Part shown: positions 5,178 to 50,362 of the stretch, in pieces
Layout: every line of letters begins with the position of its first letter
Numbering within the stretch: the stretch's first letter is position 1
DNA from: Lingula anatina
Lineage: Eukaryota; Animalia; Brachiopoda
Length of the DNA: 64,000 nucleotides
Assembly: GCA_051362555.1 (NCBI GenBank)
Contig: CM120642.1
Coordinates: forward strand, 29,884,001-29,948,000
Direction: 5' to 3'
Notes under the pieces: model-generated
Told to the model about the DNA's origin: nothing
The model's input: the letters and a program-made list of their open reading frames with translations, nothing else
Database searches by the model: none
Program-made: the position numbers and the translations under genes

Positions 5178-8100
5178 TTATGGACATTGACCTCCACTGG
5201 CCTCCGAGAAACCCAAGTGCATTCTCAAAGTTCTGCCAAGTTCTAGAAGTCGCTCCATCTCGGCCTTGAATTTCCTTTCTTCTCTGGATACAATCAGTTC
5301 ACGGATTTCCTGGAAAAAAACACCCGCACAGTAGATTGAGCTGTTTAAAAAACGGATTTACTAAATAACAGCTCTGTTTTTAATTCGTTTTTTCTCTAAG
5401 GCACCAGCTTCGACCGACTACAAAATGCACACTGCAATCAAATTACCAGTAATTAAATATCCTGGGAAAAGCAAACTGGAACTGCCTGTCTTATACAAAA
5501 TTTAAGCTGATATACTGTTTACACGTAATGAATGCTATCAAATTAGACGATTATCCTTGAAGCTTCAAACTAATACAAAACAATCCAAGTGTCAATTATG
5601 GTTTTTGTTAATTGCCTAATTGGCAAAGATGTGTAGTCTCTTTGGAGCATACAGACCATACAAAGAAGAAGGCCACCCCACCCCCCCTCCAGAGAATTTC
5701 TCTTAAAAAATCAAAGGCAAGGCACACTTAGCCCCACAGATGTATATTTTGTGTACTCATTATCGCTTGGTGGAGGATCTAAATAAATAGGGTTTTGTAT
5801 GCGTAATTTTTTTCCTCATCCAAATAGATAATGTGGATATAAACATTGTCAAAGTGATTATGGGAAGATGATGTTGCATCACAAAGACACTGGGCGAATT
5901 AGCCAATTCCAAGCTGATGACATAACAGCAGCAGAAGATTGCTTTCAAACAGATATTCCTCACCCACACAGCTATCAACAACATTATAACACCTATTAAA
6001 TCACAACATGACTGCTAGAATCTGGTGCCAGCTAATTTTCTTGAAAGGCTTACATCTGATTTTATCAGGGAAGTGGTGAAACCCTTTGCATAATGGATAA
6101 GCTTAATTAAGGGCTCATATCTCCTAAACAGAAAGAGTCCAAACCACAGGCTGGCACTGGATTGTAGTTTAGACTGAAATCACCACCCACAATAGTAACT
6201 TACTTAGTTTTAGAGTTGCATCAGAAGCTGATCATTACATATATCACACAAATTTAAAGGCAGCAAAATGGACAATAAACACTTGGCCACCCTATGCACA
6301 GAAGCAGGGAGTTTGTGCTCTAAAAGTTTATATTTCTAATGCAGTTATATTAAGATAAGTATTTCACATAAAAGAAACTGAGAGCGTGGGGGGGGGGGGG
6401 GGAGGGAGGAGCTAGTTTAATATAAGGTATTAAACTCCCTTGCGGCAGCTCTCCCTTTCTTAATATCCTTGGCATACCTGTGTGTATAAAGACTTGGTTT
6501 TCCCTTCTACCCTCAAGAAACACCTCTCGTCTGAGGTCAGAAAGATATCCCCAGCTTTGGACAGACTCAACTCTGGAAATAGGACAACAAAACAAAGATA
6601 AGAACCAATTGCTAATAGAGATTAAAACTGCATGGTTACATATGTATCACTTTCATCTTGATTTAAGTCAAACATAAGGAGAAAGATAAAATGTAAAGAG
6701 GGGAAACCAAAATCCAACTGTGAAAAAAACAAAACAAACTTGCACCTGGTAAATGACCAGTGTAGTAGTATCAGGCCAGTAATCTCAAAGAGGAGTTCTG
6801 AAAATGTGGACACTTTCACTCACTTAGCCGACCCAACTTCAAAAATGGAATAGAATCCACATCAAATTTTGATTCAGAGCCAACCATTTTGGCAGTTAAA
6901 AAGACGGTCCTTCCAACCCAGCCCTGAAACCCCACCTAGCACTGTGCCTGAATACCTTTTAGGAGAAGACTGACAGCAGTAATTAAGTAAAAGGCCAAGA
7001 ATCATACGAAGTGGGAACAACTGATCTGAGTCACATCCTAAATGTCACTAAAATACAAGACAATATTTTCCATGCTTGTGATGTTAAGATATCCTACATC
7101 TTGAAGGATTTCCCTGCTGACTGTTGTAGTACATATGGCACCATGAAAAGGGTAGAAAATTAATATAAAACAAACAAGCTTCAACCACTTCTCCCAAGTG
7201 GTTTCTCTAAGTACTTTAGCATACACATTCCATGACAATGAGCATGGATCATTGCTTAAATAATTTTTTTGAAGTATGAACATATCTGATATACAAAAGT
7301 CTGCAATCTGTTTTACTTTATGAAAAATATTACAGGGTTATTTAACTGGTTACAGCAACTTCTGTTTTCATCATCAGTATCAATCACTTATTCAACCAAA
7401 TCACCAGGACTTCATCAAAGACCCAGCCTTGAATGTGTCCACCCACCTATGACACAGAAGTCTTTCACTGGTTTCCGTGTCTGTGGGTTATCATGACCGT
7501 CTGGATGAACTACGGGCGAATACAGCACCTCAAACATGGCGTGGCTCACTACGGGCGTGAACCTCTTCATGATGTCATCCAGACCGACGCGCAGACGGTC
7601 TCTCTCATCGCGGGATATCCTGATTCCCTGCACCAGGCTGTTTGTGTCGATGCCAAAGTAAATATGGCCCCCTTTTCCTGGAAGTAATCAAGTTATTTTC
7701 TATATATGTAACCTGTAACACAAGTGGGACTTTACCAAACCTGCTGTGGTGATGTCGCCAGCCAGTGTTTTAGCTAGTGATTGTATCCATAGCTTAACGG
7801 TGGCTTCATCAACAACTGGAACATTGAAACCATGATAATAAACTAACTTGGGAATTTGATGACATAATGCAGTTTTGATCATGTGAATTGCTGATGACAG
7901 AACAAATTTTTATTAACTTCACTTCATTGATGATAGCCTATAGAGCTTCAGCTTCTTTTTTTCTTATCTTTTCTATTTTTTTTTTTTTTTTTTTTTTTTT
8001 TTGAGATTGCTGAATGGAAGTACAGAAAGAAATACATCTAGCTTAACTCTCATCTTATAATTATGTTTGATGTCCACCTAAGAATTATTAATAGCCATGT

Positions 8101-11100
8101 TCCTGACAGTCTCAGAGTTTTCACGTGCTTGAACAAATAGCTCTTAGTTTCTGATGTACATTAAGATAATACAATGTGGTATTGCATCTTATAAGGTATT
8201 CTTTGGCCAGTCAAAATTGATCAGTTGGTTAGCAAGTGGCCACTTTTTGTTTTTTAACATGTGATGCAAAAGGTAAAAAAATAATAAGGTTTCCTCAAAG
8301 TGCGAGTCCCTCTTCTTAACCAATGTTTCAGTTTTGTCTGACCTTAGCCTGTGAGAGCTACTTTCTGCGTTGTCACTTGAGTTTAAATGTGCCACAATCA
8401 GTCTTTCACTGATATGTCATATGTTTTGTATCAATTTTTCATTTCTTACCTTGATTCATAAAACCACAGATTAGTTTCTCAACAGTTTTAAACATCACTT
8501 TTTTCACGTCTCTAGTACTCCTCAACTCATGAAGATCATCTTGCTTGAAGGAGACTTTCTGATCTGGAAAATGAGTTTATAGTATTAGCAAAGATCTACA
8601 TATTAAAGACCAACAGCAAAACTGATTACCAGATATCCTAATAACTTTGCCAGGACCACTTCACTTTGTTAGTTTTAAAAGTTCAAATATGAAATAGCTA
8701 CAGATATATAACTTTATATCTCTTCACAATTCAAGTCACTGTCTCAAGAGATAAATATAATATTTATTTTTTTGGTTATCTATTACTAGAAGGTTCTTAC
8801 CAATAATATTAATATATAGTGATTTCCTCAAAATTTAAAAAACAGAAAAATAAATGTTTTCTGAATATCCATCAAATAATGTATAAAATGCTCCTTACCT
8901 AATATATAATAGTTCTTTTCACTGAGCTCATACAAGGTAGCAGTATTCACTGGTTTGCTAGGGTCTGAAACAAACAAAAGCAACCTATTCGAGAAGAATA
9001 TATTTTTCTTACAGGTTTGTTTGAAATAAATATTTGTAAACAACATTTTTTACAGAATTTAATTCATGAACAGCACAAAAATTTCCCATACCTTTCTTCC
9101 ATATTCGTCAACAAAGCAGCAACCTTAAAACAACATTAGCCCTGAGAGCTTGTCTACAAGTCTACAAAAAATTGCATTTCCAGTTAAAATTTCTCAAAAT
9201 TTACCCAAAGTGGATTCAGGGACTCAGATCTGAACATGTTGATAAAAGCTACTTATTCTAATTTACAACGTACCTGGCAATGCAATGACTGGCAGTCCTC
9301 CAGCCTCTTCTCCTGAGGAATAGGTCCTGGCTGCAGAGTCATATATCTCATCATCACTGGAACTCTCCTGGAATTAGATATAGTAAATTATGGTACAGTA
9401 AGAGAAAATCATATGAAGTTACGGCATGGCATGGCATGGCATGGCATGATAAAGAATGGCAAAGAACTACATGGTATGGAATGCTACAGCAAGTCATAGC
9501 AAGTCATGACATGGTATGGCAAGTCATGGCTGTACGACATGACATAGCAAGTCATGACATGGTATGGCAAGACTTGACACAGTATGGTAAGTCATGGCAT
9601 GGCATACTACAGCATGGCATAATATGTCATATTATGATGGCATCGTACAGTATGGTACAGTAGAGAAAAGTACAGATTGTGATCTTGCCAGTTAAGTTAG
9701 GTTATACTCTAGGCTCACCTTGGAAAGATTTCTGCCAGCTAAAAAATGGTTCAAATCATTTTTGTTCCATTCCCATTTTTCTTTCAACATGGCCCTAAAT
9801 ACCCAAAATAGTAGTACATTGTACAATGTACCTGTAACAGCCTATCTCTGGATAGGGATCCCAGAGCTGGCTTTCTCTCAAGATCACTGTCACTTCCCCT
9901 CCCTCTCCTGATTGGTCTATCTCTGCTACAACTCCGCCCACTCCTGCTACTGCTGCGCCCTCTTTCTTCCCCAAGTGATGACGGAGATGCAAGGCAAATG
10001 TCAAGTAGGGCTGTTTGATCTTTTTCATCAGTATTCCTTTTTATTCTGTTAAATAAGAAATTTTAATTATTAAGCAATATATATAGAAATTCAAACTGTA
10101 TTAAGGTGGGGTTTCCCCAAAAGACAACAAAAACAAAAAGCAAACAACTTAAAAAAATGCAATATCCAATAGATTCTCTTTCTATGGGACACTTTGAATC
10201 AATTTAAGTATCTTACAGGAACATGACCCAAAGTTCATCACACCATTAACAAGGCAGCAAAGCTGTCAAATGTACAGACAAAAAACAGAAAAAAAAAGAT
10301 GCAAAATAGGTCATTATGTCAATTTTGATGCAATAATAAATGCTTATAAACGCACAGTCAGTCAACACTGATTTTTAATCATGCACAACAGGTAACATGG
10401 TCAATAACAGGAGCAGATTCAGAGATATTTTCTGACAGTATTCCAAAGTATCTTTGTTGATCCATCCTCCATTTTGATAGTCTTCCAACAGAAACCCGTT
10501 AATATAAACTGTAAAATCTGACTGTCTTCCAGGAGACCCAGAAGATGGTCTTAATCCACCCTTTCAATAAGATTACAATGTTAGGACCATGAGAGTTAAA
10601 ATTCACATGATGAAAGTCCCTATATATGAAAAATGATGACAGTGCATAAAATAATATTACATCGTGTTTAAAGACATAAATACCAATACAGCTGCTTATG
10701 TGGAAATACTGAAAATGTGCACAGCCTCAGGTGGATGGGAGTTAAAAATCAGATCTTAAAAATGCCAGTGTTGGAGAAAAAATTAAATAGAAACAACAAA
10801 AATATAATTCTAATGAAGCTGTTATTCACTCCTTCCTTATTATGGACACTATGTTATCTAGCAGAGAGCTTAACAGGGAAATATCAACAAGTGTGCTTTA
10901 TGAAATTTCAATTAATGGCTACTTAATTAGGTAAATGAGTTTATAGCACTGAAATTAGCCTTGTGAATACCCAAGGGGAATTAACAGACTGACCACACAA
11001 ATTTGTCTATCAAAGGTCTTCAGGCCCATAAGTCACAACTTAAGAAAAGCAGAAAACAATAATGCACAAAAACAGGAGACTGCCCAATTCTGATGCAATA

Positions 11101-14100
11101 ATACATTATGTTTAACTGCACAGTCAACATAAAATTTTAATTATGCACAACAGGTAACGCTAATGAAAGTAAAAGCATAAGGCTCCAGGCCCATCAGAGT
11201 TCAAGTTTTCAATTAGAAAGTGCCAGAATGAGAAAAATGAAAATTTCACAAAAAATGCATAAATTTAATAAAAATGATGACCCAATTGACCTGGCTTTCT
11301 AATTTGAACTGCATGCCAATCCTAAAAATCGTACTTATAAGTTAAATATAATAATAAGTAACACAGTTTTCTTTTCATAATGTTTGCAGTAGCAGTGCAA
11401 AAAGATTATTGTCAATTTTGATGTAACATTACATAATAAATTATAGAATAATTATCACCAATTTTTGATTATTGACTATAAATAGCATGGACATGTAGAA
11501 AATTTGATTACCATTAGGCTTCATGTCCATGGGAGCTCTGAGTCCCACAATGAATATGCCAAAAAGATAATGAATATTTCACTAAGTGTATAACTTCCAG
11601 AAAAAGAAGCCAATTAGACTGCTTTTCCAACTCGGGCTGCATTTTAGTCCTGTGTTTCTTTTTTGAAAGTTTGACAGTAATAAGTAACACCGTTTTCCCA
11701 TAATGGTCATCATGGCAGCAGCACCAAATATTGTGTTTTCTTCTATTTTGATGCAACATTACATAATGCTTAACAGCATAATGACCATCAATTTTAAATG
11801 ATAAAATATACGTGTCATGGATTTTCAGAAAATGTGACTAGCAAGGGTCTTCAAGCCCGTGGAGGTTCTAAGTCGCACCTTGAAAATGTCAATAAGTGAA
11901 AAATTAAATTTTCACAAAAAACTGTTAAATTGCCAGAAAAATTTACCAAACAGACTGCATTGCCTACTGAGGCTGTATGTTAGACCCATGTTTCTTTCTT
12001 GTAAGTTTGAGAACAGCAAGTGACATGTTTTCCCTTAAATGGTCATCATAGGAGCAGTGCCCTAAATAGGGGTTTCTTCAAATTTTAATGCAACGTTACA
12101 TAGTGTTTAACAGCATAATAACCATCAAATGTTATTAATAAAATATTAGTAACATGGACATTCAGAAAACATGACAAGCAAAGGTCTTCAGGCCCATGGA
12201 ACTTCAAAGTCACATCTTGAAAATGCCAAAATGTAAACAAGACAGCACTGTCCTGAAATGGGTTTATTTCCATTTTTAACACTTTTTTAACATAAAACAA
12301 AATAAACATTTTACTGCCATTTTTATATGACCAACTAAGAAAATTGATGAGATGGGAAAAGTATCAATAGAACAGTGTTAAATGTCCAATTTCCTCCATT
12401 CTGAGATTCTGAACATAGTGGATGATTGAATCTGACAAACTGCAATGATATGAGTTTATTTCCATTTTTGACACTTTATTACACAATACATGATAACAAG
12501 TTTACCATGTTTTTTTACATAATCAACTAACAATGTTGTAAAGATGCAGGAAATATCAAACAAACACTTTTACACATCTAATTAGTTCAATAATGAGACT
12601 GTTAACATGCCTAATAATTGAATCTGAGGAAATGTGAAAAAACAGTATAACTTCTAAAATAATGGCCCGATTATGCTGATTTTCGAACTCAACCTGCATT
12701 TTAGTAAGATTGACCACTCCTGTGAATATAATGCCAATTGGCCAACCCGTTTTTCTTATATTGTGTTATCAGTGTTGCATTTATATTGAAAAGTGAAAAA
12801 ACAGCATAAATTCCCTAAAAATGGCCCAATCATGCTGATTTTCGAACTTGACCTGCGTATTAAGAATTTTCATCAGTTCTGTAAGTTTCAAGCCAAAAGG
12901 TAAAATGGTTTTCCACTTACTGTGTTATCGGTGCTGCATATATGCTGAAAAAGTGAAAAAACAGCATAAATTCCCTAAAAATGGCCCAATCATGCCGATT
13001 TTCGAACTTGACCTGCATATTATGAATATTCATCAGTTCTGTAAGTTTCAAGTCAAAAGGTACAATGGTTTTCCACTTATCGTGTTATCGGTGCTGCATA
13101 TATGTTGAAAAAAGTGAAAAAACAGCATAAATTCCCTAAGAGTGACCCGATCATGCTGATTTTCGAACTTGACCTGCGTATTATGAATATTCATCAGTTC
13201 TGCAAGTTTCAAATCAAAAGGCAAAATGGTTTTCCACTTATCGTGTTATCGGTAAAAGTGCATGGCGACGGCGACGACGGCGACGACAGACGCAGATGAT
13301 GGCTATATGTACAGACACATCTGTGTCTGTACATAAAAAGGTAAAAAAACTTAACTTAATTTAAGAAAACCTAACAAGCCAAAATGCATATTTCTATATA
13401 TTACAGCGACACAATAAAACTAATGGTTGTATAATGATTAAGTCAAAAATATATATTTAATATATTTCCATTAAAAAAGCACTAGAGATAGGAAAGCAAG
13501 TCCACTGTACCTTTCCCTGGCTCTTCCCACTCTTCTGTCCCCACTTTCCTGCCTTAGGTTGGCACTGCCTGTAAAGGTTCGAAGGACCTGCATCAGCTTT
13601 GTCTTAACACTCCCGTCATCTAGAGAAGACTCCAACTGCAGCAGTGCTTGGATACCTATAAATATATATATAAGCAATGTTCATTAGTTTGGTAGTTGGA
13701 TCATACAGATTTATTATTGGCAGAAGCCGAATTTTTTTTATCACACTGAGTTGGCTGTAAGATAACAGTAACAAAAAAAATTCAGCTTTTGCCAAATAAT
13801 TATTGCTTATATATCACACGCAGACACTTGTATGTACATATTTCAATTTTTTGCATTGGAGGTCACAAAACAGATGGCTAAGATGCATTAAGAAATCCGT
13901 GCATGAAGCTCAACATATAAATACCGAGTATATATAAAAATAGTATGATCTTTATCAGAATCAGAATTTTTATCAGACCAGAATCTGTTCAACAGTTGAA
14001 TTTTATACATTCATGCAATACACATGTTAACATATGTCTTTAATTTATGGGTAAAAAGATGGAGATAGGTTACCCTTCAAGTAAGCAAACATCTTCTTGT

Positions 14101-17100
14101 TGGCAGCATTTCCATACAACAGGTTATTTAGTGCCAGCAAACATTTCTCTAATACCTGTTCTTCTATGGCATGGTCGGCACCGGATATATAACTATGGCA
14201 CATATCTATGAAATCATTAAAATAGGTCTCAAATATTTAATTTAATCATATATTAAAATGTAGGCCTCCATATTGAACAGACACAGGCCAAAATGATCTA
14301 GTTCCCATTAGTCGTGAGAAAAAAATTATTACCGTCAGACTATACATTCTTTGAAGACCAGTTATTTCTTTGAATGGTACTCAAATGATTATAAAATAAT
14401 TTAAGTTTTCAGGCGACACAGCATGACAGTTACAGATTACATTTCCATCAACCATTATTAGTAACAAAAAGTGGCAAAATGTTTCATGGTTAACAAAACA
14501 GATGTTTCAGAGTGGTAATAAAGAAATTACCAGATGTCTCAGTTACACTTTTAAAAGGTTGTGATGTGCTATAACTACCTATCAAACACTGCAAGCCTCC
14601 CAAACTTGCAACCTTTTCCCTCAGACTCTGCTGTTTTCCTAGATTAATCAGGACTTCCAGAGCTTTTTCTGCTATCTTACCATCCGGCACTCTTGTGAGG
14701 GGCAGAATAACTCCCATACCCCCATCAGTGAGTACAGCGCCACCTATAGTAAAAAATAATAATAAATCACTGTGACCTTTTTTTAATCCAAAGCTTTCAA
14801 TTTCAAGTAAAGGGATAGATATAGACAACACCATGTTAGCAATTCAATATTTAAGCACCAAATTTTATTCCAGTTAATTCTTATTTAAATGATCTTACTT
14901 TGTATTGCAGCAATAGTGAATCATAGGAATATCAAAAGGAATCAATATATTTATATCCATTTTGTCATATAAATGACTCTGTCTAAAAGATTCGTATTTA
15001 TTCAAGTAATCTTAAGTTACTGAAAATTTGATATTACTATATATTAAACAAACAAACAAACAATCATGGTTCATTCAGAAAGTCTCTCACCTAGAACATA
15101 TTTCTCCTGGCATAGATTGCACAGTGCTCCTAATGTGTTGGCAAGAAGTTGATTGCTGATAGGTGTAGGTCCTACTCCTTGACAGAAATAAAAAACTTTG
15201 TATGAATTATTTTTCAGAACCATATTTTGACAGATTCTATAATACAAAATCTGCCCTTATAGAACATCAGCCTGTTAAAAATAGCTGTCTTTAAATCTCT
15301 GTAAAGAGACTCCAAATGCCTGCAATAACTACACCACTAGCCTAGGATAATAATCCTGAATCAGTTATTTAGTATACTATCAAGCTTCTCAATGTAAATG
15401 TAGCTGCATGATAATAAATTCATTATATCTGAATTTTATATTAAAATTTTCTACGAACCTTTTAGTCTACACAGGGTTGCCTGTGGTGGGATTTTGCCCA
15501 GGTTCATCTCTTTAGTCAAGTAATACATGTCACTCCAGGGTACCTTGCTGACCACGCCATGATCCAGGACATACACTGAACACACCTCGTCTCTCACCCT
15601 TAATATCTGCATGGAGAAAAATAACACAGCTTATGTCTTTATATGAAAAAATATAATATCTTGTTGAAAAAATATTACAATTAAAAATAATTTATTCAAT
15701 GATACTAAAAAATATAATATACAATATAACAATAGTTTCATAGTGAATGAGCCCTTTTGTCACTGTCACTCATGTCCCCCCACCTGTCCACGGCAGTGTC
15801 CCATCCCATCCAATGTGACACACACAAACTGGCCAGGTTCTGGAGCCTTTTTCAGTTTCACCCCTTTGCTGTCTACTTGCTCTGCTATTGTCTTCTGGAC
15901 TTGTTCTACTGTGCTCAGAGTGTCCAATCCTCCCACATATGCCATGAAGTACTGAGGACTGATGACATGGCTGACTCTGATATCCAACCAGTCATCTGTG
16001 CTCTCTGGGATATCCTGAAGAAACACAGGTTTATTATAGCTGTGCAGTCAAAGGGATTCACAAATTTGCGAACTTAAAATAAATGATTGTAAATATGATG
16101 GTAAATATGACAACAAATATGAACACTTATGCATGTTCAACTTGATGTATTTTTGGGGAAGAGTTGAAGTCCTAATTAACATACTGAAGTTAAGTCAGAA
16201 GTTAAGCATGTACATGTAGTCGTATGTTTACATGCAATTTTAATAATATTGTTTTTTGTTATCAATCTTTCATCAAGCAATTTTACCTTTATCTCAACAC
16301 CTGACACCAAATATTCTGATTGGGAAATTTTCTGATTCTGCTCTTTCTGAGTATTTAAAGGAGGCTTTATCTCTGGCCATGCAAGTCCTCGCTTTAGCAT
16401 TTCCTCTTTTACTACAACATCAATGGTTTTATCAGTGGTATCGTAAAGTTCAACAACGAAAGATGATGCAGACTGAAGTATGCTGTTGGAGTCACATTTT
16501 AGGTACTGGGAAAGTATCTCCTCTTTCTCTCCATCAACAAGTGGTGATACCTTGCCAATTAGGTCTTTTCCCTTGGTAAAATTTCTTAAGAAGCTTACAG
16601 CTTCTGGATGATATGTATAAAAATACAAGTTCTGCATATCTGCTATCTGCAAAAGCAATTTGATCAGTCCGGCTTTGAGTATTTGAAACTGGTTGTATGC
16701 CTCCCCATAGGAGAGTTTACGTAACAGCAGCACCATCTGCTCCAGATACTGAAGGAGTCTTATATGACTAGAAGATTCCAAGTCTGGTAGTCCATCTCGA
16801 CATATGTGTGTGCATGTGTTCCAAATGGGCCTTAGAACTTCCTTCTTGACCACAGCCACCTACATTATGTTAAACATAGAGCTGATATAAAATCAGGACA
16901 AACTGAGGCAAACACAAATTCATTAGGTATAAGGATTATATCTTACATAAAATTCAGGTCAGCAATTGCATATATATGAAATAGATTGCAAAAAAAAAAA
17001 AATAATAATAATAATAAAATAATTGGAATCACTGATATAACTTATTTTTTAATGTAAATGACTAAATAAACAAACGACAGCATCTCACAATAATGTATCA

Positions 17101-17440
17101 TTTTACTTTATTAACATGATTCCAACAGTAGGTTCCCATTACGACACTTCTTCTATTGAAGCATACTGTTTTTAACAGAAACTTGCTGTACTGGTACTGG
17201 TACCTTTGTATCTGGATCATTATGGCATAACAGGCTTAATAAAGCACATGCCATGGTCTTCAGTGACAACATGTAGTCCACATTCAGCATTGTAATTAAC
17301 TTCAACAACAGATTCTGTGGGACAGCCTCTGGTTTTCCAGAAGTAGAACAATACTGGATCATTTGCTGTACTAACTGAGCTAGCTTCGTCTCATTGTTCT
17401 CCTCTATGATACTGTCTGATAGAGTGACAAACGAAGCCAT
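5178..17440 (-). CDS. 865-aa multidomain protein: ARM-like repeats, permuted extended Tudor domain, RG/RS linker, C-terminal Schlafen AlbA_2 (SLFNL1-like) domain
   Basis: 14 coding exons, all GT-AG and phase-compatible, 2598 nt in total: 17440-17204, 16859-16287, 16014-15784, 15606-15459, 15177-15091, 14743-14579, 14205-14074, 13655-13511, 10045-9832, 9367-9274, 8563-8450, 7677-7447, 6572-6478, 5309-5178 (TAA). ARM-like motifs: ACALLSLLC, LGALCNLC, AEKALEVLINL, SLGGLQCLI, LLALNNLLYGNAANK. Tudor motifs: VSHVISPQYF, PEPGQFVCV, VYVLDHG, IPPQATLCRLKGV. Schlafen motifs: HELR..KLICGFMNQGKGGHIYFGIDTNSLVQGI..DRLRVGLD..FLRVEG. AATAAA on the - strand at 4638-4643. Confidence 0.85.
9421..9660. repeat. 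Degenerate pentanucleotide (GGCAT/ATGGY) repeat in an intron
   Basis: ggcatggcatggcatggcatggcat followed by decayed 5-mer variants. It generates the spurious ORF 9436-9663. Confidence 0.8.
10250..13335 (-). mobile_element. Non-autonomous Helentron-type element (HINE/DINE-like) carrying tandem repeats
   Basis: 5' end on the - strand: perfect 14-bp inverted repeat TATGTACAGACACA-tc-TGTGTCTGTACATA (13306-13335) next to a T-run, followed by a CGT/CGC microsatellite (13265-13290). The matching subterminal repeat ATGTACAGACA is at 10270-10280, with a short hairpin (10253-10267) and a CTTG-TT end. Internal ~160-bp tandem units at ~12630-13255 and older degenerate ~330-bp units at ~11050-12230. Confidence 0.75.
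13712..13800. mobile_element. Short palindromic MITE-like element
   Basis: ATTATTGGCAGAAGCCGAATTTTTTTT ... AAAAAAAATTCAGCTTTTGCCAAATAAT imperfect inverted repeat. Confidence 0.45.
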
Positions 17441-19872: not shown

Positions 19873-22800
19873 ATGGCCGCACTTGCTGTGGATCCTCCAA
19901 GAGGAGGCTTTTCCTTTGAAAATTGCAAAAGGTGAGACACATAGTGTTACCTGCACTGACACTAGCCTGTCGGTCAATATATTTGGAATCGAAAAAATGC
20001 CTCACATTTAAGGATTTATTGTTGTCACATTTAAATAAGATCTATTTACTTGTGGCCACACAATGATATGCAAAATCTCGAAAAATTGCTAATAATAATG
20101 TAGTAACTAATAATAATGTAGTAACGAAACTTAGTGATACTGTGTTTGAAACTGTCACCTTACAACTCTCAAGCATCCACGATGAGGATGGAATTTTTGT
20201 GACAAGCATTGTCATTAACCAACAAAAGTGTGCTTTTGTGAAATTGGTGAATACAAATCTTTGTGGAACGATCAGTCACACATTTTTTTTTTCTAGAAAT
20301 GCTTTGCTTGCACAGAAAGGTATGAAGGCTCCAACTGCATACAAAACTGGAACAACTATCTGTGGAATAATATTTAAGGTTTGTGCATTGGCATTCTCTT
20401 GTGTGTTTGTGTTTGTCAGAAACTGTTTTGGTCAAGTGTTGGTGATTTCTGTGCTTTACCATTATTGCATTGTGCATCTTCTTTCAATGTCATATTTTAC
20501 CTGATTTGTTGTTAAAAGAACAGAAGTTTTTATCATGTTAGTACTAGAAAAGCAATAAATATTTTAAAAAAGTTTTTTGTTAATGAAATTAGAGAAAAAA
20601 TAAAAATAAAACTATGTATATAGTGTGCAAATATTTGCTTATTTTATGTTATTTATTTTATAAATTTCTTTACAGGATGGTGTAATTTTAGGAGCTGACA
20701 CAAGAGCTACAGAAGACACCATTGTTGCAGATAAAAATTGTTCCAAAATACATTTCATAGCTCCAAATATATAGTAAGTCATCATGATGAAATTAAACTC
20801 CAAAGTAGTGATGCTAAATATGTTTAATTATAGTACATTGTAAATAGTTCTTCATGCTTTTAAGCTTAAAAGCATTCCAAATTATATTTTACATAGTAGG
20901 ACTCGTCAGGTATTGAAGAAATTATAATCACGTTAGTTTCAGTATCTGGAAATGCATGAATTTTTCATATGAATATGATGAATAATGAATTCATTAAAAT
21001 GTTTTAATTCAAATGCAGGAGCATGGTATTAGATTAAGCACATGGATTTTGATCTCTTAGTAAATGTTATTAAATTGATGATATAGCATTAATTGAAGAT
21101 CATAAGTAATTCATTATGATATATATTCTAGCTGTTGTGGGGCAGGGACAGCAGCAGACACAGAGATGACCACTCAGATGATCTCGTCTAACCTTGAACT
21201 CCACAGACTGAACACCGGGAGAGTGCCCCGCGTGTGTACAGCCAACAGGATGCTGAAGCAGATGTTGTGGAGGTAGGCAGAAAAAGAGATTGTGCTGAAA
21301 TCCTATCCATGCAGGCTTGTCAGAATGTAAAAACAAATAAAATGTCAAATAAAACGTAAAAGTAATATTTACTCTTTGTATACGTACCCACAATCACCTA
21401 CAGTGGTGCTGATTTTGAAAATTGATCAAAAGCTGTTGAATAATGGTCATAAATGTGCATAGCATTTATTATAACAGTGATGAAAGTACTTCCTGTTTAC
21501 CCATAATTGTAGATATTTCAGTGTTGTATGTATGTATGTTCTTCTGGCCTCCGTAGCTGTTGTCTTGGGTGCTTGCTTTTTCTAATTTTTATTTTTTTCA
21601 ATGACGACTTTTTATCTCTGCTATCAAGTCCATTCTCAGTCTGATAGTCCTGCTTACTTATGTTATGTTGATAAAATCATAGAACATTAAGTCATGGATA
21701 TAAGACCCTCTTATGGGGTCATTATTTTCTACATTATTACACATGAACACGTAAACACACACATGCGCACACACACATTGTATTGTCGTTTTGGCTTTCT
21801 AGCCATCAGCTATATATGTATTAATAGTATTTATGGTGCTGTTGTGTGTGGTTTTAGGTATCAAGGTTATATCAGTGCAGCATTAGTTCTGGGCGGGGTG
21901 GATCCCACAGGGCCCCACCTCTACAGTGTCTACCCTCATGGTTCCACGGATAAGCTGCCATATGTAACCATGGGTAGGGCAACCATTCTGTTGTTATGAT
22001 ATTGATTAATATGAAACAGAATTATAGGTGATAACTTAGAGATTTGATTTAATGCAGACTATGACTTGTAAAAGGAAACAGATCAGAGGATTTTGTTGGT
22101 CTGAACTTATGTCTTTGCAATTTTTTGTAAGTGGCAAAGTATGTCATTGTGTGTCACAAACCAATTTGTCAATCTATGGACCAAAGGCATAACCTTTTTG
22201 CTATTGTCGTGTTGGGTCAAAACACGGTATTTGAAATGTCTCTGACGGGACATTTTAGAGACAATTTTAAAAATTACAGTTGGTAAACGATCCACATGGT
22301 TACTTTTAAATACATTTTTATTTAGCTGGACCATAAAGGATTATGTAAAACAAGCAGCTAATTTGTATTGAAATTAATGTGGGAATGACAATCACTTGAA
22401 GGTCTGTCTCTGACGGGACATTTTTGACCCCTGTATTTTTTTACTAAAACTCCAATGCAAAATTCTCTTTGAAATTTCATTTAATCAAGACTTTTGTGAT
22501 TCATATTGCAAGGTACAAGTCTTGGGAAGCAATTAATGCACAAACAGGCCAGTTTTGTTTACTTTCCTTGGCAGCATGGGCTGTTAAGTGTAAAAAGTCA
22601 CTGTCTCTGACGGGACGTCTCTGACGGGACACTTTTGGGCACTAATGAAAAATCTTAGAAAAAAGGTTTAAAAAGTCACACATTTGTATCTAATGAATCT
22701 TACTTGATGGTTATTGCAAAATAGCATTTCTGTACATTAGAAAAATCACCAGATGCAATATGTTTAGAATATTAATTAATTATCATGACACAGCGATAAG

Positions 22801-38237: not shown

Positions 38238-39122
38238 TCAACTACCGAACATTTTTCGCATCCCTGCAGCTATGGTACTTTCTGAATTTTTCAAACGTTC
38301 TTCAACAATTTTTTTCAGGTTCTTTACATCAGGATTTCCTGGCTCTTTTGCCTCAGCCTTGGCCAAGTCCATCTTGGCATCATCGTAGTTTTTCAGTTCT
38401 GTATTTGCTTTAGCTCTCCTAAAGAGAGCTTTAACATCCTGGGGGTTAATTTCTAAAGCTTTATCACAACTTCTCACTACATTTTCATATGAGCCATTCC
38501 TCAGCAAACAAAGAGATATATTGGTATAACACACAGTAGACAAACTTCGTATCTTTTCATTTAACTCGGGGCTTACATCCCACCCTCTTAAAATTATGAG
38601 ATATTTCAAAGCTTTACTGTAGTGTTTAGAAGCATACTCCAGGTTGCCTTCTTTAAACAGTCTTGATCCATTGTCTTTGCATTTTTGTGCCATCTGTAAA
38701 ATTAGTTCCGGCTCTCTCTCCCACAAATCTGTGCATCTCTGGACACTTTTCAAGGTAACACGGAGGACAACTTTACTAGCTTCATCATCTTTAAATTCAT
38801 CCCAGGTCTTATGATCTCTTGAGAAACAGACCTCGCACACCTCCCCTGGTTTCATACTCTCAATGCATTTTTCTATGTTCTCGTTGCACCAAGTGTCTGG
38901 GAACCCAAGGGTAATCTCAATATTCCCACAGTCATACTGGTATAGTTGACCAGCAGCAACATCCTGAGGAATGTGCACACTTTTGATACAGACTGTCACA
39001 ATAGAGCCCTCATTTGGTGTGTACAACCCTTCCCCCGGGTGGGTTAGCTGTTTACAGATTGACCTGTCTGGTGAGACCCATGGGTCCGCTAGTTGTGGAG
39101 TGCCATTGTTAGAATTTTCCAT
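38238..39122 (-). CDS. FKBP-type/TPR co-chaperone (FKBPL-like), 294 aa, single coding exon
   Basis: Degenerate FKBP-like N-domain (K..HPGEG..P..GS.V..IEKCIESMKPGEVCEV), three TPRs (KDNGSRLFKEG, YTNISLCLL, KALFRRAKA) and C-terminal MRKMFG. Probable 5'UTR intron acceptor near 39213. Confidence 0.85.
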   Translation of the reverse strand: MENSNNGTPQLADPWVSPDRSICKQLTHPGEGLYTPNEGSIVTVCIKSVHIPQDVAAGQLYQYDCGNIEITLGFPDTWCNENIEKCIESMKPGEVCEVCFSRDHKTWDEFKDDEASKVVLRVTLKSVQRCTDLWEREPELILQMAQKCKDNGSRLFKEGNLEYASKHYSKALKYLIILRGWDVSPELNEKIRSLSTVCYTNISLCLLRNGSYENVVRSCDKALEINPQDVKALFRRAKANTELKNYDDAKMDLAKAEAKEPGNPDVKNLKKIVEERLKNSESTIAAGMRKMFGS

Positions 39123-39834
39123 TTCAGAATTAACTTAACAAGTCTGGTCTCTTTTTGAGGGGCTCAGCAACCGTTTCTTTCTATATAAGCTCAAGATGCA
39201 GTGCCATATATCCTGGAAGAAGATCAAAATAAACATCAAAGCCAGGAAAAACTACAAATACAACATTAAATTAAAGATTATATGTGAATCAAATAGAGGA
39301 AGTTCTAATTTCAAACTTGATTAATTTCACTATTGATTTATATTATTTTTCTAACTGCTACTAGCTGACTGACAATATTTACTTAACAAAAAATTATTTT
39401 ATTAGTCTTCTTATGATCTACAAATCCTCATGCAAATTCAACAAATAAAAATACTCGTAAACCTACATTTTCACTTGTGAGTTCTGCCGGTTCTGCAACC
39501 ATTAGTTTCTGTTTCGAAGATGTTACGAAAGGAAGCAACTGGCTACCGATGTTTTCAACCACGAAGAGCCCTTAGATAAAAAAAATTAACGTTACTTAAC
39601 TTAAAGGGTGGTGTAAAATTTTTTCCTTTCCAAAAGCATTGCATTTCATTCCTTATCTGACGTTAAACACGATGCCCTAACACATGGCTTTCATGCCACC
39701 TGTTAGAATAAAGTGATCAGTGGCGCCATCGGCCGTCCACAATAATAATTAAAGTAAAGTACGGTGCATTATCATCGCCGTGCAAAACACATGCATCGGT
39801 CATTCGTAGGTGATGTAGTTCTGACTTATGGTAC

Positions 39835-42800
39835 ATGATGTCTGGTGTTGAAATACCACTTATAGACTTTTCAGGGTGCGCAATAAACAAAGTGCGCGAG
39901 GAAGAAAATCTGAAACAAGCAGGGCAGCAAATTATCAATGCTTTCGAGACAGTTGGATTCTTCAACGTTGTCAACCACGGAATTTCGGAAATTGAGGTAT
40001 TGTAGCCTGCATTTCAACGCCTGCCACCAATAAAATTTCCTGCAGATCAGTAGATTTGTTTTAGAACATGTGAATTTAGTGGACAATAATGGCCAGTAGA
40101 TTTTTTCATAAAAATTACCCCTTTCCAAAATCTTCCTGTAATATATTGCACTCAGTAAATACACCAATTTAAAAGGTTCCCTTAATTCCAACCAGTTTCC
40201 TTCTCAGGCTCCTCTTCTGATGATGTGTCTGGGGATTTTTATGTATGTTGACACAATTTCAGCCTTGAGCTTCAAGTGTTTTATATTTTGATAGATAAGC
40301 GAAAGCGAGCAGCTGTGACACCAAGAGATAAATACATTGCCTTAATAGTAATAATTTGCTTAGGTTGCAGATATTTTCAAGATATCAGAAGAATTTTTTG
40401 CATTGCCTACAGAAGTAAAAGTGAAGCACAGAAAAGCCAAAGACAGCAACCATGGGTATGTGGAACTGGAGAGAGAAGGGTAAGGAAATCATAATCTACT
40501 TTTTTGAATGTTTATTTAATTATTTATTATTTATTGATATAATTACTTCGCAATAGTTAAGACATATATTCAAATTTATTAGGGTACGTTGTCTGTGAAT
40601 GTATAATGTCTTAAAGTCATTTGATTTTGTTAGTTTTGATACTTAAATATGTTTTCATATTTTTAGCTTAAATCCAGAAGAGAGGCCATCAGATCTTAAG
40701 GAGTCGTTCAATTTTACTCCCAAAAGTCAGAACAAAGTAGGTTATGAAATAAAGGCAGTAATTTGATTAGCTGATCTTTTATTAAACAAAAAAGCATACC
40801 ATTCATAGAATGATAGTATTAGTATATTTTTAACTGATTATTACCATAATATTATTGAGATACACATTATTTTAAAAATATTATTTATTTAAAAATATGT
40901 CATCTTTCTTTGTTTTTAACATACATGTAGTGCCAAACTCAATGCAGTTTAATAGTGATAGATAACAGTGGAGTTTGTTGTAATTCATTTATATAAATAA
41001 ACATTTTATAAATTGGAAAATGTCATATTTTTACTTTTATTGACCAAATCAGTTTCTTATTTATTTAATTAGTACCACCAGCGTGTACGCTGGCGGTACT
41101 CATGGTTTTAGTCCCGACCCGTCTCGTCCGGCTCCGCCGGCTCCGTTGGCTCCGCCGGCTCCGTTGGCTCCGCCGGCTCCGCCGGCTCCGCCGGCTCCGC
41201 GTACTGGCGCCGGATACAAGTCACCGTTACCGCTTCTCCTCCTAGACCGCAATGACCCCTGTCCCCATCTCTTGGATTTAGGTCACATATAACCTCAACT
41301 TGAACCCCCAGGTTTTTTTGTCTCAGTCGGTGCATTGACCTGGGCGTGACGCTAGTTGAAATGCACCCTTGTCAAAATTTTTGAAAATTCAATGCCAATT
41401 ATCTACCCTACGGAAGGAATTATGGGAAAATTTTCTACAGACGGCTTTCCAAAAGTCATATGTGTAGATTTCAAATATGCCCTTGGATTAGATCTTTGAC
41501 CCTTATTTCAAGGTCAAATGGGCCAAAATTTTCAAAAAAATGAAATTTTTTACGAAAAAAAATATTATTTGCACTGTTATTCAGACACTACACAGACTTA
41601 ACCAATAATTATATTGGAAAGTGTTACCCTTTGGGTCATCTTTCATCTCCATGAATTTGGGGTCAATCAGTGCATTTTCACGGGAGTAGCGGCCATAAAA
41701 TATGTAACTCAGAATTGTAACATTTAGTCCCTTATATCTCCAAAACTGGCAGAGATAGGTCAATAGTTATTATTTAAGTTGAATAGGAAGTCATTTACTT
41801 GCAATCTAGATGTGACCTTGAAATTGACCTTTGACCTACTTTTCACCATGAACTGAACTTTGCAAATTTTTGTTCCCTTTTATCTCCAAAACTGGCAGAG
41901 ATAGGTCAATAGTTACTATTAAAGTTGAATAGGAAGTCATATACTGGCTATCTAAGTGTGACCTTGAAATTGACCTTTGACCTACTTTTTACCATGAACT
42001 TAACATTGCAAATTTTGGTTCCGTTTAATCTCCAAAACTGGCAGAGATAGGTCCATAGTTACAATTGAGCTTGAATAGGAAGTCATTAGAGGCAATTTAC
42101 TCTGATCTTGAAATTGACATTTGACCTACTTTTCATCATGAATTGAAGTTTACCAATTTTCGTTCCCTTATAATTCCAAAACTGGCAGAGATAGGTCCAT
42201 AGTTTCTGTAAAAGTTGAATAGGAAGTCGCATACTGGCAATTTAACAGTGACCTTAAAATTGACCTTTGACCTACTTTTCACCATGAATTGAACTTTGAC
42301 AATTTTCTTTCCCTTTTATCTCCAAAACTGGCAGAGATAGGTCTATAGTCACTATTGAATTTGAATAGGAAGTCATATACTGACAATTTACTGTGACCTT
42401 AAATTTGACCTTTGACCTACTTTTTACCATGAACTGAACTTTGCAAATTTTTGTTCCCTTTTATCTGCAAAACTGGCAAAGATACACCCATAGTTACTAT
42501 TGAATTTGAATAGAAAGTCATTAGAGGCAATTTATTGTGACCTTAAAATTGACCTTTGACCTACTTTTCACCATGAATTGAAGTTTACAAAATTTTGTTC
42601 CCTTATATCTCCAAAACTGGCAGAGATAGGTCCATAGTTACTATTGAACTTGAATAGGAAGTCATATACTGGCAATCTAAGTGTGACCTTGAAATTGACC
42701 TTTGACCTACTTTTCATCATGAATTGAACTTTGCAGATTTTCTTTCCCTTTTATCTCCAAAACTGGCAGAGATAGGTCCATAGTCACTATTGAACTTGAA

Positions 42801-45800
42801 TAGGAAGTCATATACTGACAATTTACTGTGACCTTAAATTTGACCTTTGACCTACTTTTAACCATGAACTGAACTTTGCAAATTTTTGTTCTCTTTTATC
42901 TCCAAAACTGGCAAAGATATGCCCAAAGTTACTATTGAATTTGAATAGAAAGTCATTAGAGGCAATTTATTGTGACCTTAAAATTGACCATTGACCTACT
43001 TTTCACTATGAACTGAACTTTGCAAATTTTCGTTCCCTTATATCTCCAAAACAGGCAGAGATAGGTCCATAGTTACTATTGAACTTGAAAAGGAAGTTAT
43101 ATACTGGCAATCTAAGTGTGACCTTGAAATTGACCTTTGACCTACTTTTCATCATGAATTGAACTTTGCAGATTTTCTTTCCCTTTTATCTCCAAAACTG
43201 GCAGAGATAGGTCCATAGTTACTATTGAACTTAAATAGGAAGTCATATACTGGCTATCTAAGTGTGACCTTTAAATTAACCTTTGACCTTCCTTTTACTA
43301 TGAACTGAACTTAGCAAATTTTTGCTCACCTTTATCTTCAAAACTGACAGAGATAGGTCCATAGTTACTATTAAACTTGAATAGGAAGTAATACACTAGC
43401 AATCTGTGACCTTGAAATTGACCTTTGACCTACTTTTGCATGTTTTCTGGCCTTTAAATCTGCAAAATTGGCAAAGAAATGCCCATGGTTGCTATGGAAC
43501 TTGAATAGAAATTCATATACTATGATATTGAAATTGACCTTTGACCTACTTTTTCACCATGAACTTAGCTTTGCATATTTTCTTGCCTCTCATATCTTTA
43601 AAACTAGCAGAGATGTGCCCATGTTTCCCATAGGTTTTCTCTTTTGTCAGCATATATGCACCATTGACAACACATTTCAAGGAAAACCAATAGGCCTTTT
43701 GTCTAGAGAATACAGTAGTGATCAAGGGTAGGAAAATGCAAGTCAATTCGAAAATCTGCTTGATTGTACCATTTTTAGTTATATTTTTTTGCATATTTTG
43801 AGAACTCTTGTTGATTGCATCTTATAGAGCTTGTCAAACACAAGACTGGTGATGGTGTCCCTTTTAGGAGGGGGGGGGGGGCATACAAATGCGCTTACTC
43901 CAGCTGGTGGTACAATATCCGGAGGCGGTATCGCCTCTCTGATCCTCTAGTTAAAACAAACTTTTGTTTCTAGCCATGGCCTGATGAAGAGCTTCCAAAA
44001 TTTAAGACAACTTTTGAGAAATTCTGGGACCTTTCCAGTCAATTAACATTGAGGATATTAGAAGCCATGGCCTATGGATTAGACTTGGTCAGAACTACTG
44101 GCTTTTTAACACTTGGGTGTTTGCAATTTTTTATACACTACTACTTTTCGTAAGATAAGGTTACAGATTGTGTTCAGAAGTGGAAAAAAATTTTTGATAA
44201 TATATTCGATTATCCATAGAATAATTTAACTTGATTTTTGATGTTTAGTATTTATGGACACTGGAACTTTTTTGTGATTTTTCTTCTAAGCAGAAAAATA
44301 ACAGTACTTTGCAAATTGCCATAACACAAATTGTCCTTATTGTAAGATTTGTAGTTAATTTTATTTTCATTTCTATAATATGTTAGGAGCCACAGTATCT
44401 AGTGAATACTCACCAGCTGCTGGGCAAGGATGGCAATGCCTCTACACTGAGAACAATGTATTATCCAGGTAGACTACCTACTGTATACACTGAACAAAGC
44501 CATTGAAGAGTGAATGTTTTTAATCATCTAAGAGGATTAGAATAGAAGGATAAAATAGAATAGGCACTCAAGACTTTTGCTAGCTGTGTGTCAGTAAATC
44601 AGATGGCCAGTCCATCCAGGCCATTATTTAGTGAAAGGTCTTGGGTTGAGGGTGGGTGGAGGCTGCAACTTCAGTTCGTTGCTAAATGTAAGTTCCACAA
44701 TTGGGATTTATACATAATTTTAATATTAACCAGTGATGGTTAGAAATGCAACCGACTTGCAGGTCTGGCATATTTCTGGCTTTGTTTTGCCCAGTCCTGG
44801 GATTGTTTGGAATCCATGGCAAAAGATCCTGTATGTGATTTGGCTGCTGTATAATAGTTTGTGCACAATGTTCACTGCATGTTATTTTATTAATATCTAT
44901 TGTTAAGCCCTTGCTCAAGCGTAGTTTAGGGAGTTTGATTTTTGTATTGTACTGCTGTATTTCTTAAATTTATTTAGATTTTTAAGCATTGACTTTGTAA
45001 GAAGTTTTTTTAGTTGGTTTATTTATATTTTAATTACTACTTTACTATAGCCATCATTGTATTCGAATACACCAGCTACACAGTGGTAAGCATTTTGTTA
45101 TACTCAATCTTAGTAATTTAGTTTTCTATTTGTTCTACATCCCCTTACACTTAGGTGTGCCTAGCGCTGCCTCAATAAAAGCAAACCAAGTGAGGTGTGG
45201 AGAACATTCTGACTTTGGGTCCATAACACTGGTGTACCAGAGAGAAATGGGAGGTCTTGAGGTGAGTGGCTTCCTGTAGGGACCATTCGTAATGAATTTT
45301 GTTCACCTAGCCAATGTGCACTAACTTCACAAGGACTCTTGCCAAATGCAATCAGATCAACAGACTAACACACCTCTTGTTTCCAATGTACTTACATAAT
45401 CACCAGCTTTTCTGTATTCTACTCAAAGTGAGGAGGAGGCATGTTAACCTGATTGCATTCAGCAAGAGTCCTTAAGTATGGAGTTCTTGTGTATTAGCTA
45501 AATCAACAGTGTAGCAGATATGTGTGCTTTTTTGTAGTTGGAAATTTGTAGTCAAAGATTTGGTCAATTACTTTCCAGTTTTACACCAATAAGCATACAA
45601 TATTAGGCCGTATATTTGCTTCTCAAATTTGACATACTAGTTAAACTACCTACTCCTGTAGTGACATTTACAGAGTTATAAATTATATTAATATAAGTAG
45701 TAACCATATGAGGTTTTACTCACAATTTGCTACAAAATTCCTTGATTTTTTCCTGATATCCAGGTACTAACTCATGACGGCCGTTACACCCCAGTTCCAT

Positions 45801-48106: not shown

Positions 48107-50362
48107 TCATTTATCTGTCACCTCACCAGTCCTTAACTTTCGTCGCATAACAAGTTCAGGAGATATTTTTCTCCTGTCATAAACTTGGCCAAAAACGGCC
48201 ATGAGATCTAAGAAAGCAGTCGTGAGATTTAAACAATTACGCCATCCGAATTCGCTGGTGGAATAGTCATGAGGAAAAGTGTGATGGAAGTTATGGAATC
48301 CTTCTCCTATCGCTCCAAATGCTACCATTCTGTTTTCTCTAGGGTTGATGTTTTTGTCATACGGTCTGTTTCCGTATAAATGTGCGGCGCTATTGACCAG
48401 CCACGTCGCATTTAGTGCCGCACAGTACCGCAAGAGGGCGCATATGACGTAGGCAACCCAAATACTCTCGCCCCAGAAGTACCACGGAACCACCGTGGGG
48501 AGTATGAAACAGAACAGCAGAACAGATGGGTAGTAAAACCTGCAAGAATTAAAATAATTTCATGTTTGAATTTCATAGATATGAATAAATACCAGTTATA
48601 AAAATCCGCTACGATTGATAAAACTCGTCTCTCATATATGCATCTTTATGCATCTAAGAAGTAGCAGCTAGTATATGAATACACCAATTTATGATTCAAC
48701 CTTCACGAACCTGCACGAAATAGTATAATAGATTCAGCTGCGGGTTTGGAATATACATAAAATATATATTGCCCTCACGATCTATCGCCCTTTTTAAAGG
48801 AGATTTACGTCTTTATTTCATTCAAAAAGATCAAAAACACTACGCACCACTATTAATTTTACATAATTTCACACAATGACTAATAGCACTAAAACTCCTT
48901 ACGTTCAAGTACATTACACCATGAAAGTATATATGCTTCCATGGTTACACCCTGGCAAATAATATATTCACATTCGTCACTAAATTGATAAACAAAATCA
49001 TGACTTCTTACTTTCTTTGATAAACGCACACAGGATCAGCGTAAAGGTCGCTTAAGTCAATCTGCTTCCCCTTGGTTTTGACATCGGGATGTTTTCTCAC
49101 CAACAACCAGCCGATGTGCGCGAAGAAAAACCCGCGTAACGCGTTGTGGGGGTCTGCGTCCGTCTCCGAGTACTTGTGATGCACTCTGTGATCTCGGACC
49201 CACTCAATGATATCGTTCTGGAATGAAAAAAAGGGAAAGTGTTTGACCATAAATTCTACTTTTCTACTTGTACTTATAAGCCAATGTGCTTTGATACAAG
49301 TCCGTCCCTCCCCCCCCCCCCCCCCCCCCACCCACCCCCGGCTCACCTCCCGCGCGCGAGAGAGAGAGGCGATCGTTTTTTACGCTTGCTATATTAAAAT
49401 ACAATACAACATCGAAATGAAACATTACTTTTTAATCTTGCATTATTTACTTCGATGTCGGTATAGATGTTTTACCTGGAAAGCCAGAGATTGTAGACAA
49501 GCGAGGAAGGTCCTCAGAGGTAGTCTGGCCTTGTAAGACCGGTGAGACCACAGTCTGTGAGCACCTGCCGTGATGCCCATGGCGCTTCCTATGTACAGCA
49601 AGATGGCTGGAAGGTCAAGTCAATAGATCATCAATGTTAATTACTTGATCAAAACATTGGTCCCCTTCACACGCATGAGTAGCATAGTAGCCTCTACCCT
49701 TTCAGTAAAGTGGACATGCGTTTTAATCGTCATTTTCACAAGCTAGACAGACCGTGAGTCAATTGGGGGGGGGGGGGGGGGGGTTAATGCCCTTTGTACG
49801 CTTTTGGAAAAAGATAAAATGATGTATGATCGGAATGGCTAGGGTGTCATTTTTAGATTTTTACCTTGTACTCTCTGAAGGGGTGGGGTCTGGATAAAGT
49901 CTACTCTTTGTACACTTGTGAAAGTGATGATAAAATGGATGACCCCCTAATCCAGCATGACGTATTGTGGTCACATATGTTAAATGATTTGTCTTCCGCA
50001 AACTGAGAAACGGACAGATAAAAAAACCCATATCACAACCAAATATTGGATAATCTGAGACTCTGAGTTAGTTTTGAGTTCTTACTGAGAATGAATAATT
50101 AAGAAAATATCAATTCTTTGAAAAATTATGACAGGTCTACACACACGTTATACTTACCAAAGGCAATTGTGAGGAGTTTTGCTTGGGGAATGAGGAAAAT
50201 GCCATAGACTGCCGAGATATGAAGTAACGAGAAAAGAACCACGTTCCTCCAAACAATTCTAATCGGCACTTGGACTTTTGGCTCTTCTTCTACAGCCGCT
50301 ATATCATCGTAGAGTTCACCGACGGGTACAGGAGACGCATCAACCAGGTTTCTGGGAGCCAT
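48107..50362 (-). CDS. SCD: Acyl-CoA delta-9 desaturase (stearoyl-CoA desaturase), 324 aa
   Basis: Exons 50362-50158, 49606-49476, 49217-49012, 48539-48107. Motifs IVWRNV, His boxes GAHRLWSH, DHRVHHK and GFHNFHH, DADPHNA.RGFFFAHIGW, TWLVNSAAH. Confidence 0.96.

Follow-up and report, generated by a model that had tools for sequence, protein, structure and literature searches.

Does a Tudor-type domain with its two halves in reversed order lie inside an ARM solenoid without breaking it? A minus-strand gene raises this question. It lies in a 64,000-nucleotide stretch of the Lingula anatina genome (the window; assembly GCA_051362555.1, contig CM120642.1, positions 29,884,001 to 29,948,000). Its protein reads, in order, ARM, extended-Tudor C-half, linker, N-half with Tudor barrel, ARM, low-complexity stretch and Schlafen AlbA_2 domain (Table 1), and Pfam finds TUDOR, ARM-type and SLFN_AlbA_2 families on it. 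We consider it highly probable that this architecture is a permuted extended Tudor domain inside an ARM solenoid, as a preliminary description of this DNA had proposed. That description lacked the Schlafen domain, encoded 6-9 kb further on, and the animal-wide family to which the gene belongs.

The Tudor halves and the ARM solenoid

In solved extended Tudor domains, the OB barrel is formed by strands 1-2 and 7-9, with a capping helix between strands 7 and 8 (10.1101/786731). The N-half of the window gene comprises two strands, a helix, the Tudor barrel and a last strand, and shares this layout with Papi/TDRKH, SND1, TDRD1 and Drosophila Tudor (5ygb, 5j39, 3omc, 4b9w, 4q5y). It is a clear Tudor match (PF00567, E-value 1e-6, with exon 4 alone), and a family profile matched solved extended-Tudor structures with E-values of 7e-12 to 2e-7. 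Strand 7 is the last element of the N-half, and from there the chain continues into ARM helices. The capping helix and two further OB-fold strands are present, but upstream rather than downstream (weak in-register matches, with fitting secondary structure); the canonical order of N-half and then C-half is absent. The break falls where it had been placed, after the last N-half strand and before the capping helix. The coordinates and motifs first given also hold: exon 2 encodes YHPEA, from 16613, through to GLAW, whose last base is 16377; IRVSH, in exon 3, begins at 15981; exon 4 encodes YVLDHG…LCRLK; and GVGP, in exon 5, reaches to 15167. The linker, put at about 40 residues, has 41 in the window gene and 9-73 across the family (median 17).

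A profile of the insert family matched Papi (5ygb/5ygc) twice and in reversed order. Papi residues 5-126 were matched by profile positions 103-215 (independent E-value, i-E, 1e-8), and residues 153-219 by positions 12-87 (8.6 bits, i-E 11); a further profile search repeated this pattern. With a second alignment, of the C-half only and mostly of different members, the last strand and helix of TDRKH ranked 2nd and 3rd of 177,635 sequences (E 0.52), below a repeat protein. Dividing the C-half E-values by library size gives P of ~6e-5 (Papi) and ~3e-6 (TDRKH); by the same E-to-P arithmetic, the values against the 17 extended-Tudor/Tudor-SN chains preselected by the N-half are ~1e-3 (Papi) and ~5e-5 (TDRKH). 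The C-half elements run helix, long strand, inserted helix, long strand, helix and short strand, and weakly match the C-terminal helix-strand-strand-helix block of extended Tudors such as Papi/TDRKH. Compared with those domains, the family has its halves reversed, a new linker and a position in an ARM loop, and has lost the aromatic cage and Asn/Asp. From the reversed Papi matches and the family-wide order given below, the extended Tudor domain is likely to be circularly permuted.

We examined the fold in an AlphaFold model of a homologue, P0008 (73 sequences, mean predicted local distance difference test score [pLDDT] 84.7, predicted template modelling score 0.67). Its first half contains helices at 163-173 and 226-232 and strands at 177-184, 209-216 and 238-239, with pLDDT of 82-97 per 10-residue block. 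The second half also scores high, and only the linker and the low-complexity stretch are poorly defined. The C-half segment is thus alpha/beta in the model and is not part of an ARM repeat, a result on which the proposed permutation depended. In this predicted structure, single bridges at residues 159 and 393, together with short strands at 238-239 and 389-390, point to a pairing of the insert's entry with its exit and of one half with the other. We infer from the model that the two halves would close one OB barrel.

The same model argues for one solenoid. Residues 1-539 superpose on the designed ARM protein 4plq (278/284 residues, 2.2 Å, Z 29.4), residues 44-539 on 8oh7 (236/239 residues, 2.3 Å) and residues 131-539 on a beta-catenin fragment (161/164 residues, 2.8 Å); on designed ARM proteins, about 280 residues superpose at 2.1-2.5 Å. 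The ARM residues around the insert number about 300 and are split roughly evenly between its two sides, so the 4plq and 8oh7 alignments must draw on both. In the predicted homologue structure, three-helix repeats stack in one superhelix across the insert. By profile alignment, the stretch before the insert is helices 1-2 and the stretch after it is helix 3, consecutive parts of one repeat. The N-terminal ARM block therefore ends in helices 1-2 of the interrupted repeat and the C-terminal block begins with its helix 3. Both the ARM-like helices on either side and the insertion into a solenoid loop, as first described, are upheld by alignment and superposition, and the site can be named as the loop between helices 2 and 3 of one repeat. 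Like importin-alpha, beta-catenin, Vac8 and designed ARM proteins, the family has the helix-3 Asn, kept in three repeats after the insert; unlike them, it has one repeat split by about 235 residues between helices 2 and 3. Our analyses predict one continuous ARM solenoid that carries the insert.

Several results weigh against this architecture. The modelled protein is only a 32-35% identical homologue of the window gene, and a single-sequence AlphaFold model of P0006, a near-identical Lingula record, was unusable (pLDDT 38). All matches listed by three whole-model fold searches were ARM/HEAT-type proteins, with no superposition of the insert on an extended-Tudor structure. When the insert was excised in silico, scores against two reference ARM proteins rose by only 3-6 bits, and shifted joins did equally well; this test is weakly supportive of one solenoid. 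Against the whole bank, the C-half matches alone are not significant (i-E 11 and 76; E 0.52). Of five chains shown, the reversed C-half match occurred in two, both Papi, and was lacking in the remaining three (Tud and two SND1). Pfam gave no Tudor or SN match on exon 2 or on 28 C-half segments, and a single-sequence PDB search with the C-half returned nothing Tudor-like. The permuted order, the break point and the insertion of the preliminary description thus stood, and the sequence match of its C-half proved weak.

Two other explanations of the insert were weighed against these data. One holds that the exon-2 segment is unrelated to Tudor, being an extra ARM helix with a family-specific alpha/beta insert that resembles a C-half by chance. 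The missing Pfam match and the E-values fit this, as does the first helix of the segment, which also aligns to ARM helix 3. However, the matches fall exactly on the part missing downstream, in chains preselected by the N-half, the order of secondary structure is as expected, and only beyond the insert does the chain return to ARM helix 3; we regard chance likeness as very improbable. The other takes the halves as remnants of two neighbouring Tudor repeats that form no common barrel in cis and either fold separately or swap with a second molecule. A linker of up to 73 residues would allow it. Against it, both halves have high pLDDT in a single-chain model, both are retained in 58 proteins, and the ARM halves stack gaplessly, which forces the ends of the insert together. 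We give it an equally small chance.

Gene model, family and origin

The probable permuted-Tudor stretch is encoded by exons 2-5 of the 15-exon gene, and all introns of the gene model are GT-AG. RNA reads, taken from raw runs labelled as the same species, cross the introns of exons 1-7 at 17204/16859, 16287/16014, 15784/15606, 15459/15177, 15091/14743 and 14579/14205. Each of these six joins was found in 18–87 reads, in 3/4 runs. The join 13511/10045 (exons 8-9) is also present as a read joint, loose read ends fit the exon 7-8 join, and the exons after 9 are consistent with the protein records P0006 and P0007. Because read joints span the insert, the swapped order is present in the mRNA itself and was not created by the assembly. 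Together with the homologues, they rule out both misassembly and mis-splicing.

Three Lingula anatina protein records are 93-97% identical to the gene: P0005 (N-terminal 361 residues), P0007 (C-terminal 453 residues) and P0006 (the whole form, 824 residues, in the same cluster as P0005). The source annotation makes the first two into two genes, and it splits the window gene (17204-17440 and 5178-14743) though reads join the exons between. Exon 3 of P0006 is 14 residues shorter, which is not the form in the reads, as these join at 15784.

Runs X1-X3, which are from one study, gave an exon depth of about 20-130; from comparable amounts of reads, the depth in X4, X5, X7 and X8 did not exceed about 3. 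This difference of 20-fold or more between studies suggests that expression may be restricted by tissue or stage, but the low-depth runs are also more divergent from the window than the high-depth runs.

An exhaustive search with P0006 returned 306 proteins at E <=0.001, of which 150 were listed. Word-index homologue searches gave Lingula records and two unrelated ARM proteins only, and two ESM Atlas searches gave no usable match. We profiled the order of the halves with profiles cut from a 43-member family alignment. The C-half came first in 58/58 fetched proteins matching both halves, and all 31 fetched proteins with both ARM blocks and both halves kept the full four-block order, so the swap that had been described is conserved. 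A positive-scoring C-half directly after the N-half occurred in 0/83 proteins with an N-half match. These counts include near-duplicates and many proteins that built the profiles.

Among 20 clusters looked up by name, 13 were named, with relatives in a sponge (Sycon), a sea anemone (Nematostella), hemichordates (Saccoglossus, Ptychodera), amphioxus (Branchiostoma), an annelid (Owenia), a nemertean (Tubulanus), molluscs (Liolophura, Mytilus, Elysia) and arthropods (Rhipicephalus, Schistocerca, Palaemon). None of the 20 was from a vertebrate, fly or nematode, and no search was aimed at those groups. All 20 were unnamed or labelled as uncharacterised, hypothetical or by one domain. Judged from these sequences, the family is ancient, animal-wide and uncharacterised. 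The first half of the arthropod and sponge members is too diverged for a good score. The sponge protein P0042 (Sycon ciliatum) retains the two ARM blocks and the Schlafen domain, but within its residues 186-325 only about 35 residues separate the first SN strands from the second ARM block; the Tudor barrel is seemingly missing (weak scores).

The preliminary description had derived the insert from a multi-Tudor gene. The variable linker is consistent with a junction between the C-half of one copy and the N-half of the following one. The same product would be expected whether a multi-Tudor gene was the donor or a single-domain gene was duplicated in tandem, and for the C-half it is Papi and TDRKH that match best. 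A phase-1 intron (intron 4, 15178-15458) lies at the C-terminal border of the insert in the window gene, and the N-terminal border has no intron. About 17 of the 21 homologues without a second ARM block lose likeness at the same border glycine, as from read-through into an intron, and we infer that many homologues probably share the phase-1 border intron.

If the structure holds, the family is a clean and very old case of a permutation that let a domain enter a repeat solenoid without breaking it, and this permutant has been kept from sponge and cnidarian to chordates and arthropods. Our literature search, which covered listings with subscription journals mostly outside, found no report of a naturally permuted extended Tudor domain and no ARM–Tudor–Schlafen protein.

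Cage, Schlafen domain and possible role

The cage of BmPapi consists of Phe308, Tyr315, Tyr338 and Tyr341 with Asp343 (10.1101/786731). In the family it is degenerate. The aromatic equivalent to Tyr338 is found in 0/55 members, the Asp343 equivalent is Asn in 1/55 and Asp in 3/55, and the three alignable cage aromatics occur together in none of the 55, so that a four-residue cage is absent. In the window gene, Cys, Val, His and Val occupy the four positions that were scored. On these counts, methyl-arginine reading by this Tudor domain is unlikely. RG repeats in the linker were considered as Tudor ligands and rejected, as they are not conserved (0-3 per protein).

The AlbA_2 fold is present: PF04326 scores above its cut-off on P0006 (E 2.3e-6), SLFN11 matches at E 4.5e-5, and the fold is shared by profile with SLFN11, SLFN13/Schlafen 8, SLFN5 and SAMD9. 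In contrast to the Schlafen nucleases, the family has one C-terminal domain, no helicase by Pfam, and an incomplete E/E/K motif. SLFN11 is described as requiring E209, E214, K216 and dimerisation (PMC9482658). In the family, excluding the outgroup-like P0084 from the motif counts, Glu is found at the E209 equivalent in 6/42 and at E214 in 30/42, and Lys at K216 in 0/42; the window gene has Gln, Glu and Arg there and so lacks the complete catalytic set.

Some residues point the other way and could leave room for an active nuclease. An Asp lies at -4, one place from the E209 position, in 37/42, and an Arg at +2, the K216 position, in 18/42. Several Schlafen residues, including those of an Asp/Arg/Asp motif, are near-invariant (42-43/43). 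On the same architecture, the Schlafen domain might then be an active dimeric RNase with a variant site of shifted Asp, Glu (30/42) and Arg, aimed by the ARM and Tudor parts; it is the best-conserved part of the protein and ends in a long helix. However, Schlafens without one of E209, E214 or K216 are reported inactive (PMC9482658), the E214 equivalent is replaced in 12/42, and the aligned catalytic strand does not include the near-invariant motif, which is located elsewhere. We consider an active RNase rather unlikely. The explanation that we favour, and think probable, is a permuted-Tudor ARM–Schlafen scaffold or non-catalytic subunit of an RNA-processing complex.

For the scaffold, we propose the following mechanism. 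The Tudor domain would have been opened at the loop before the capping helix, which would bring the new ends next to each other and allow its insertion into an ARM loop with the stack intact. The groove of the ARM solenoid may grip a partner peptide, and the SN/OB surface, rather than the cage, may bind a partner. As in nematode PUCH, RNA would be bound by the single Schlafen domain once paired, either with itself or with another Schlafen protein. In that way, the protein could deliver a Schlafen partner that cuts RNA to a target bound at its ARM groove and SN surface.

The comparison with PUCH comes from C. elegans, where single-Schlafen proteins, one of them without catalytic residues, are described as docking on the SN surface of an extended Tudor (PMC10567574). 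PUCH (TOFU-1, TOFU-2, SLFL-3/4) and TOFU-6 of PETISCO thus resemble the family in having single-Schlafen proteins, some non-catalytic, tied to an extended Tudor via the SN surface and not the cage; they differ in that the parts are in separate proteins, and that text mentions no ARM or permutation (PMC10567574). TOFU-6 is only a weak profile match (E 0.58), and the PUCH likeness is an analogy, not shown orthology. SLFNL1 likewise has a single C-terminal Schlafen fold. It is not known to carry ARM or Tudor parts.

An unnamed animal gene family thus joins an adaptor domain of the type found in the PIWI-interacting RNA (piRNA) pathway to a Schlafen domain, which suggests an overlooked RNA-silencing adaptor. 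We found no direct tie of the gene to piRNA or the germline, which counts against such a role. By analogy, a scaffold or pseudo-nuclease role in small-RNA silencing is a tentative proposal that we rate a little short of even. A bolder version is speculative and in our judgement quite unlikely: the family would be a pan-animal fused counterpart of nematode PUCH–PETISCO, with a Schlafen RNase or its obligate partner on an ARM/permuted-Tudor scaffold, at work in the processing of piRNA or antiviral RNA from a time before the sponges diverged, and it would have escaped notice because the usual model species lack it or carry it in unrecognisable form.

Features of the window

Table 1 Features of the probable permuted-Tudor gene and its neighbours, in window coordinates
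Feature	Position	Strand	Basis or remark
Whole gene	5178..17440	-	15 coding exons, 887 codons; open frame with GT-AG introns
Exons 1-5	17440-17204, 16859-16287, 16014-15784, 15606-15459, 15177-15091	-	
Exons 6-10	14743-14579, 14205-14074, 13655-13511, 10045-9832, 9367-9274	-	
Exons 11-15	8964-8899, 8563-8450, 7677-7447, 6572-6478, 5309-5178	-	
N-terminal ARM repeats, about residues 1-159	16620..17440	-	Profile match to ARM structures; homologue model superposes on ARM proteins
Extended-Tudor C-half, placed first, residues 162-240	16377..16613	-	Weak in-register Papi/TDRKH C-terminal matches; alpha/beta in homologue model
Linker joining the former C- and N-termini	15991..16376	-	Spans intron 2; low pLDDT (56-61) in homologue model
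Extended-Tudor N-half, residues 279-400, exons 3-5	15167..15990	-	PF00567; PDB extended-Tudor matches; cage counts
C-terminal ARM repeats, about residues 401-560	13540..15166	-	Profile aligns to ARM helix 3 right after the insert; structural superposition
Low-complexity Arg/Ser/acidic stretch, end of exon 8 and exons 9-10	9274..13539	-	Composition; equivalent stretch with pLDDT <50
Single Schlafen AlbA_2 domain, exons 11-14	6478..8964	-	PF04326; SLFN11, SAMD9, Schlafen 8 and SLFN5 profile matches; motif counts
C-terminal long helix, exon 15	5178..5309	-	Helix 832-866 in homologue model
Proteasome subunit exon	21694-21999	+	Neighbour, ordinary-looking
FKBP-like TPR gene	38241-39134	-	Neighbour, ordinary-looking
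Fatty-acid desaturase	48110-49379	-	Neighbour, ordinary-looking
MFS transporter	55421-57001	-	Neighbour, ordinary-looking

Towards the C-terminus, the low-complexity stretch is predicted to be disordered, and the exon-15 helix is a possible coiled coil, as judged from the homologue model. Intron 8 (10046-13510) contains 160- and 337-base tandem arrays as well as dispersed repeats, and RNA reads that derive from other parts of the genome accumulate on these in their thousands. Another tandem array, at 41728-43437, has about 12 copies of a 146-base unit that are 85% alike.
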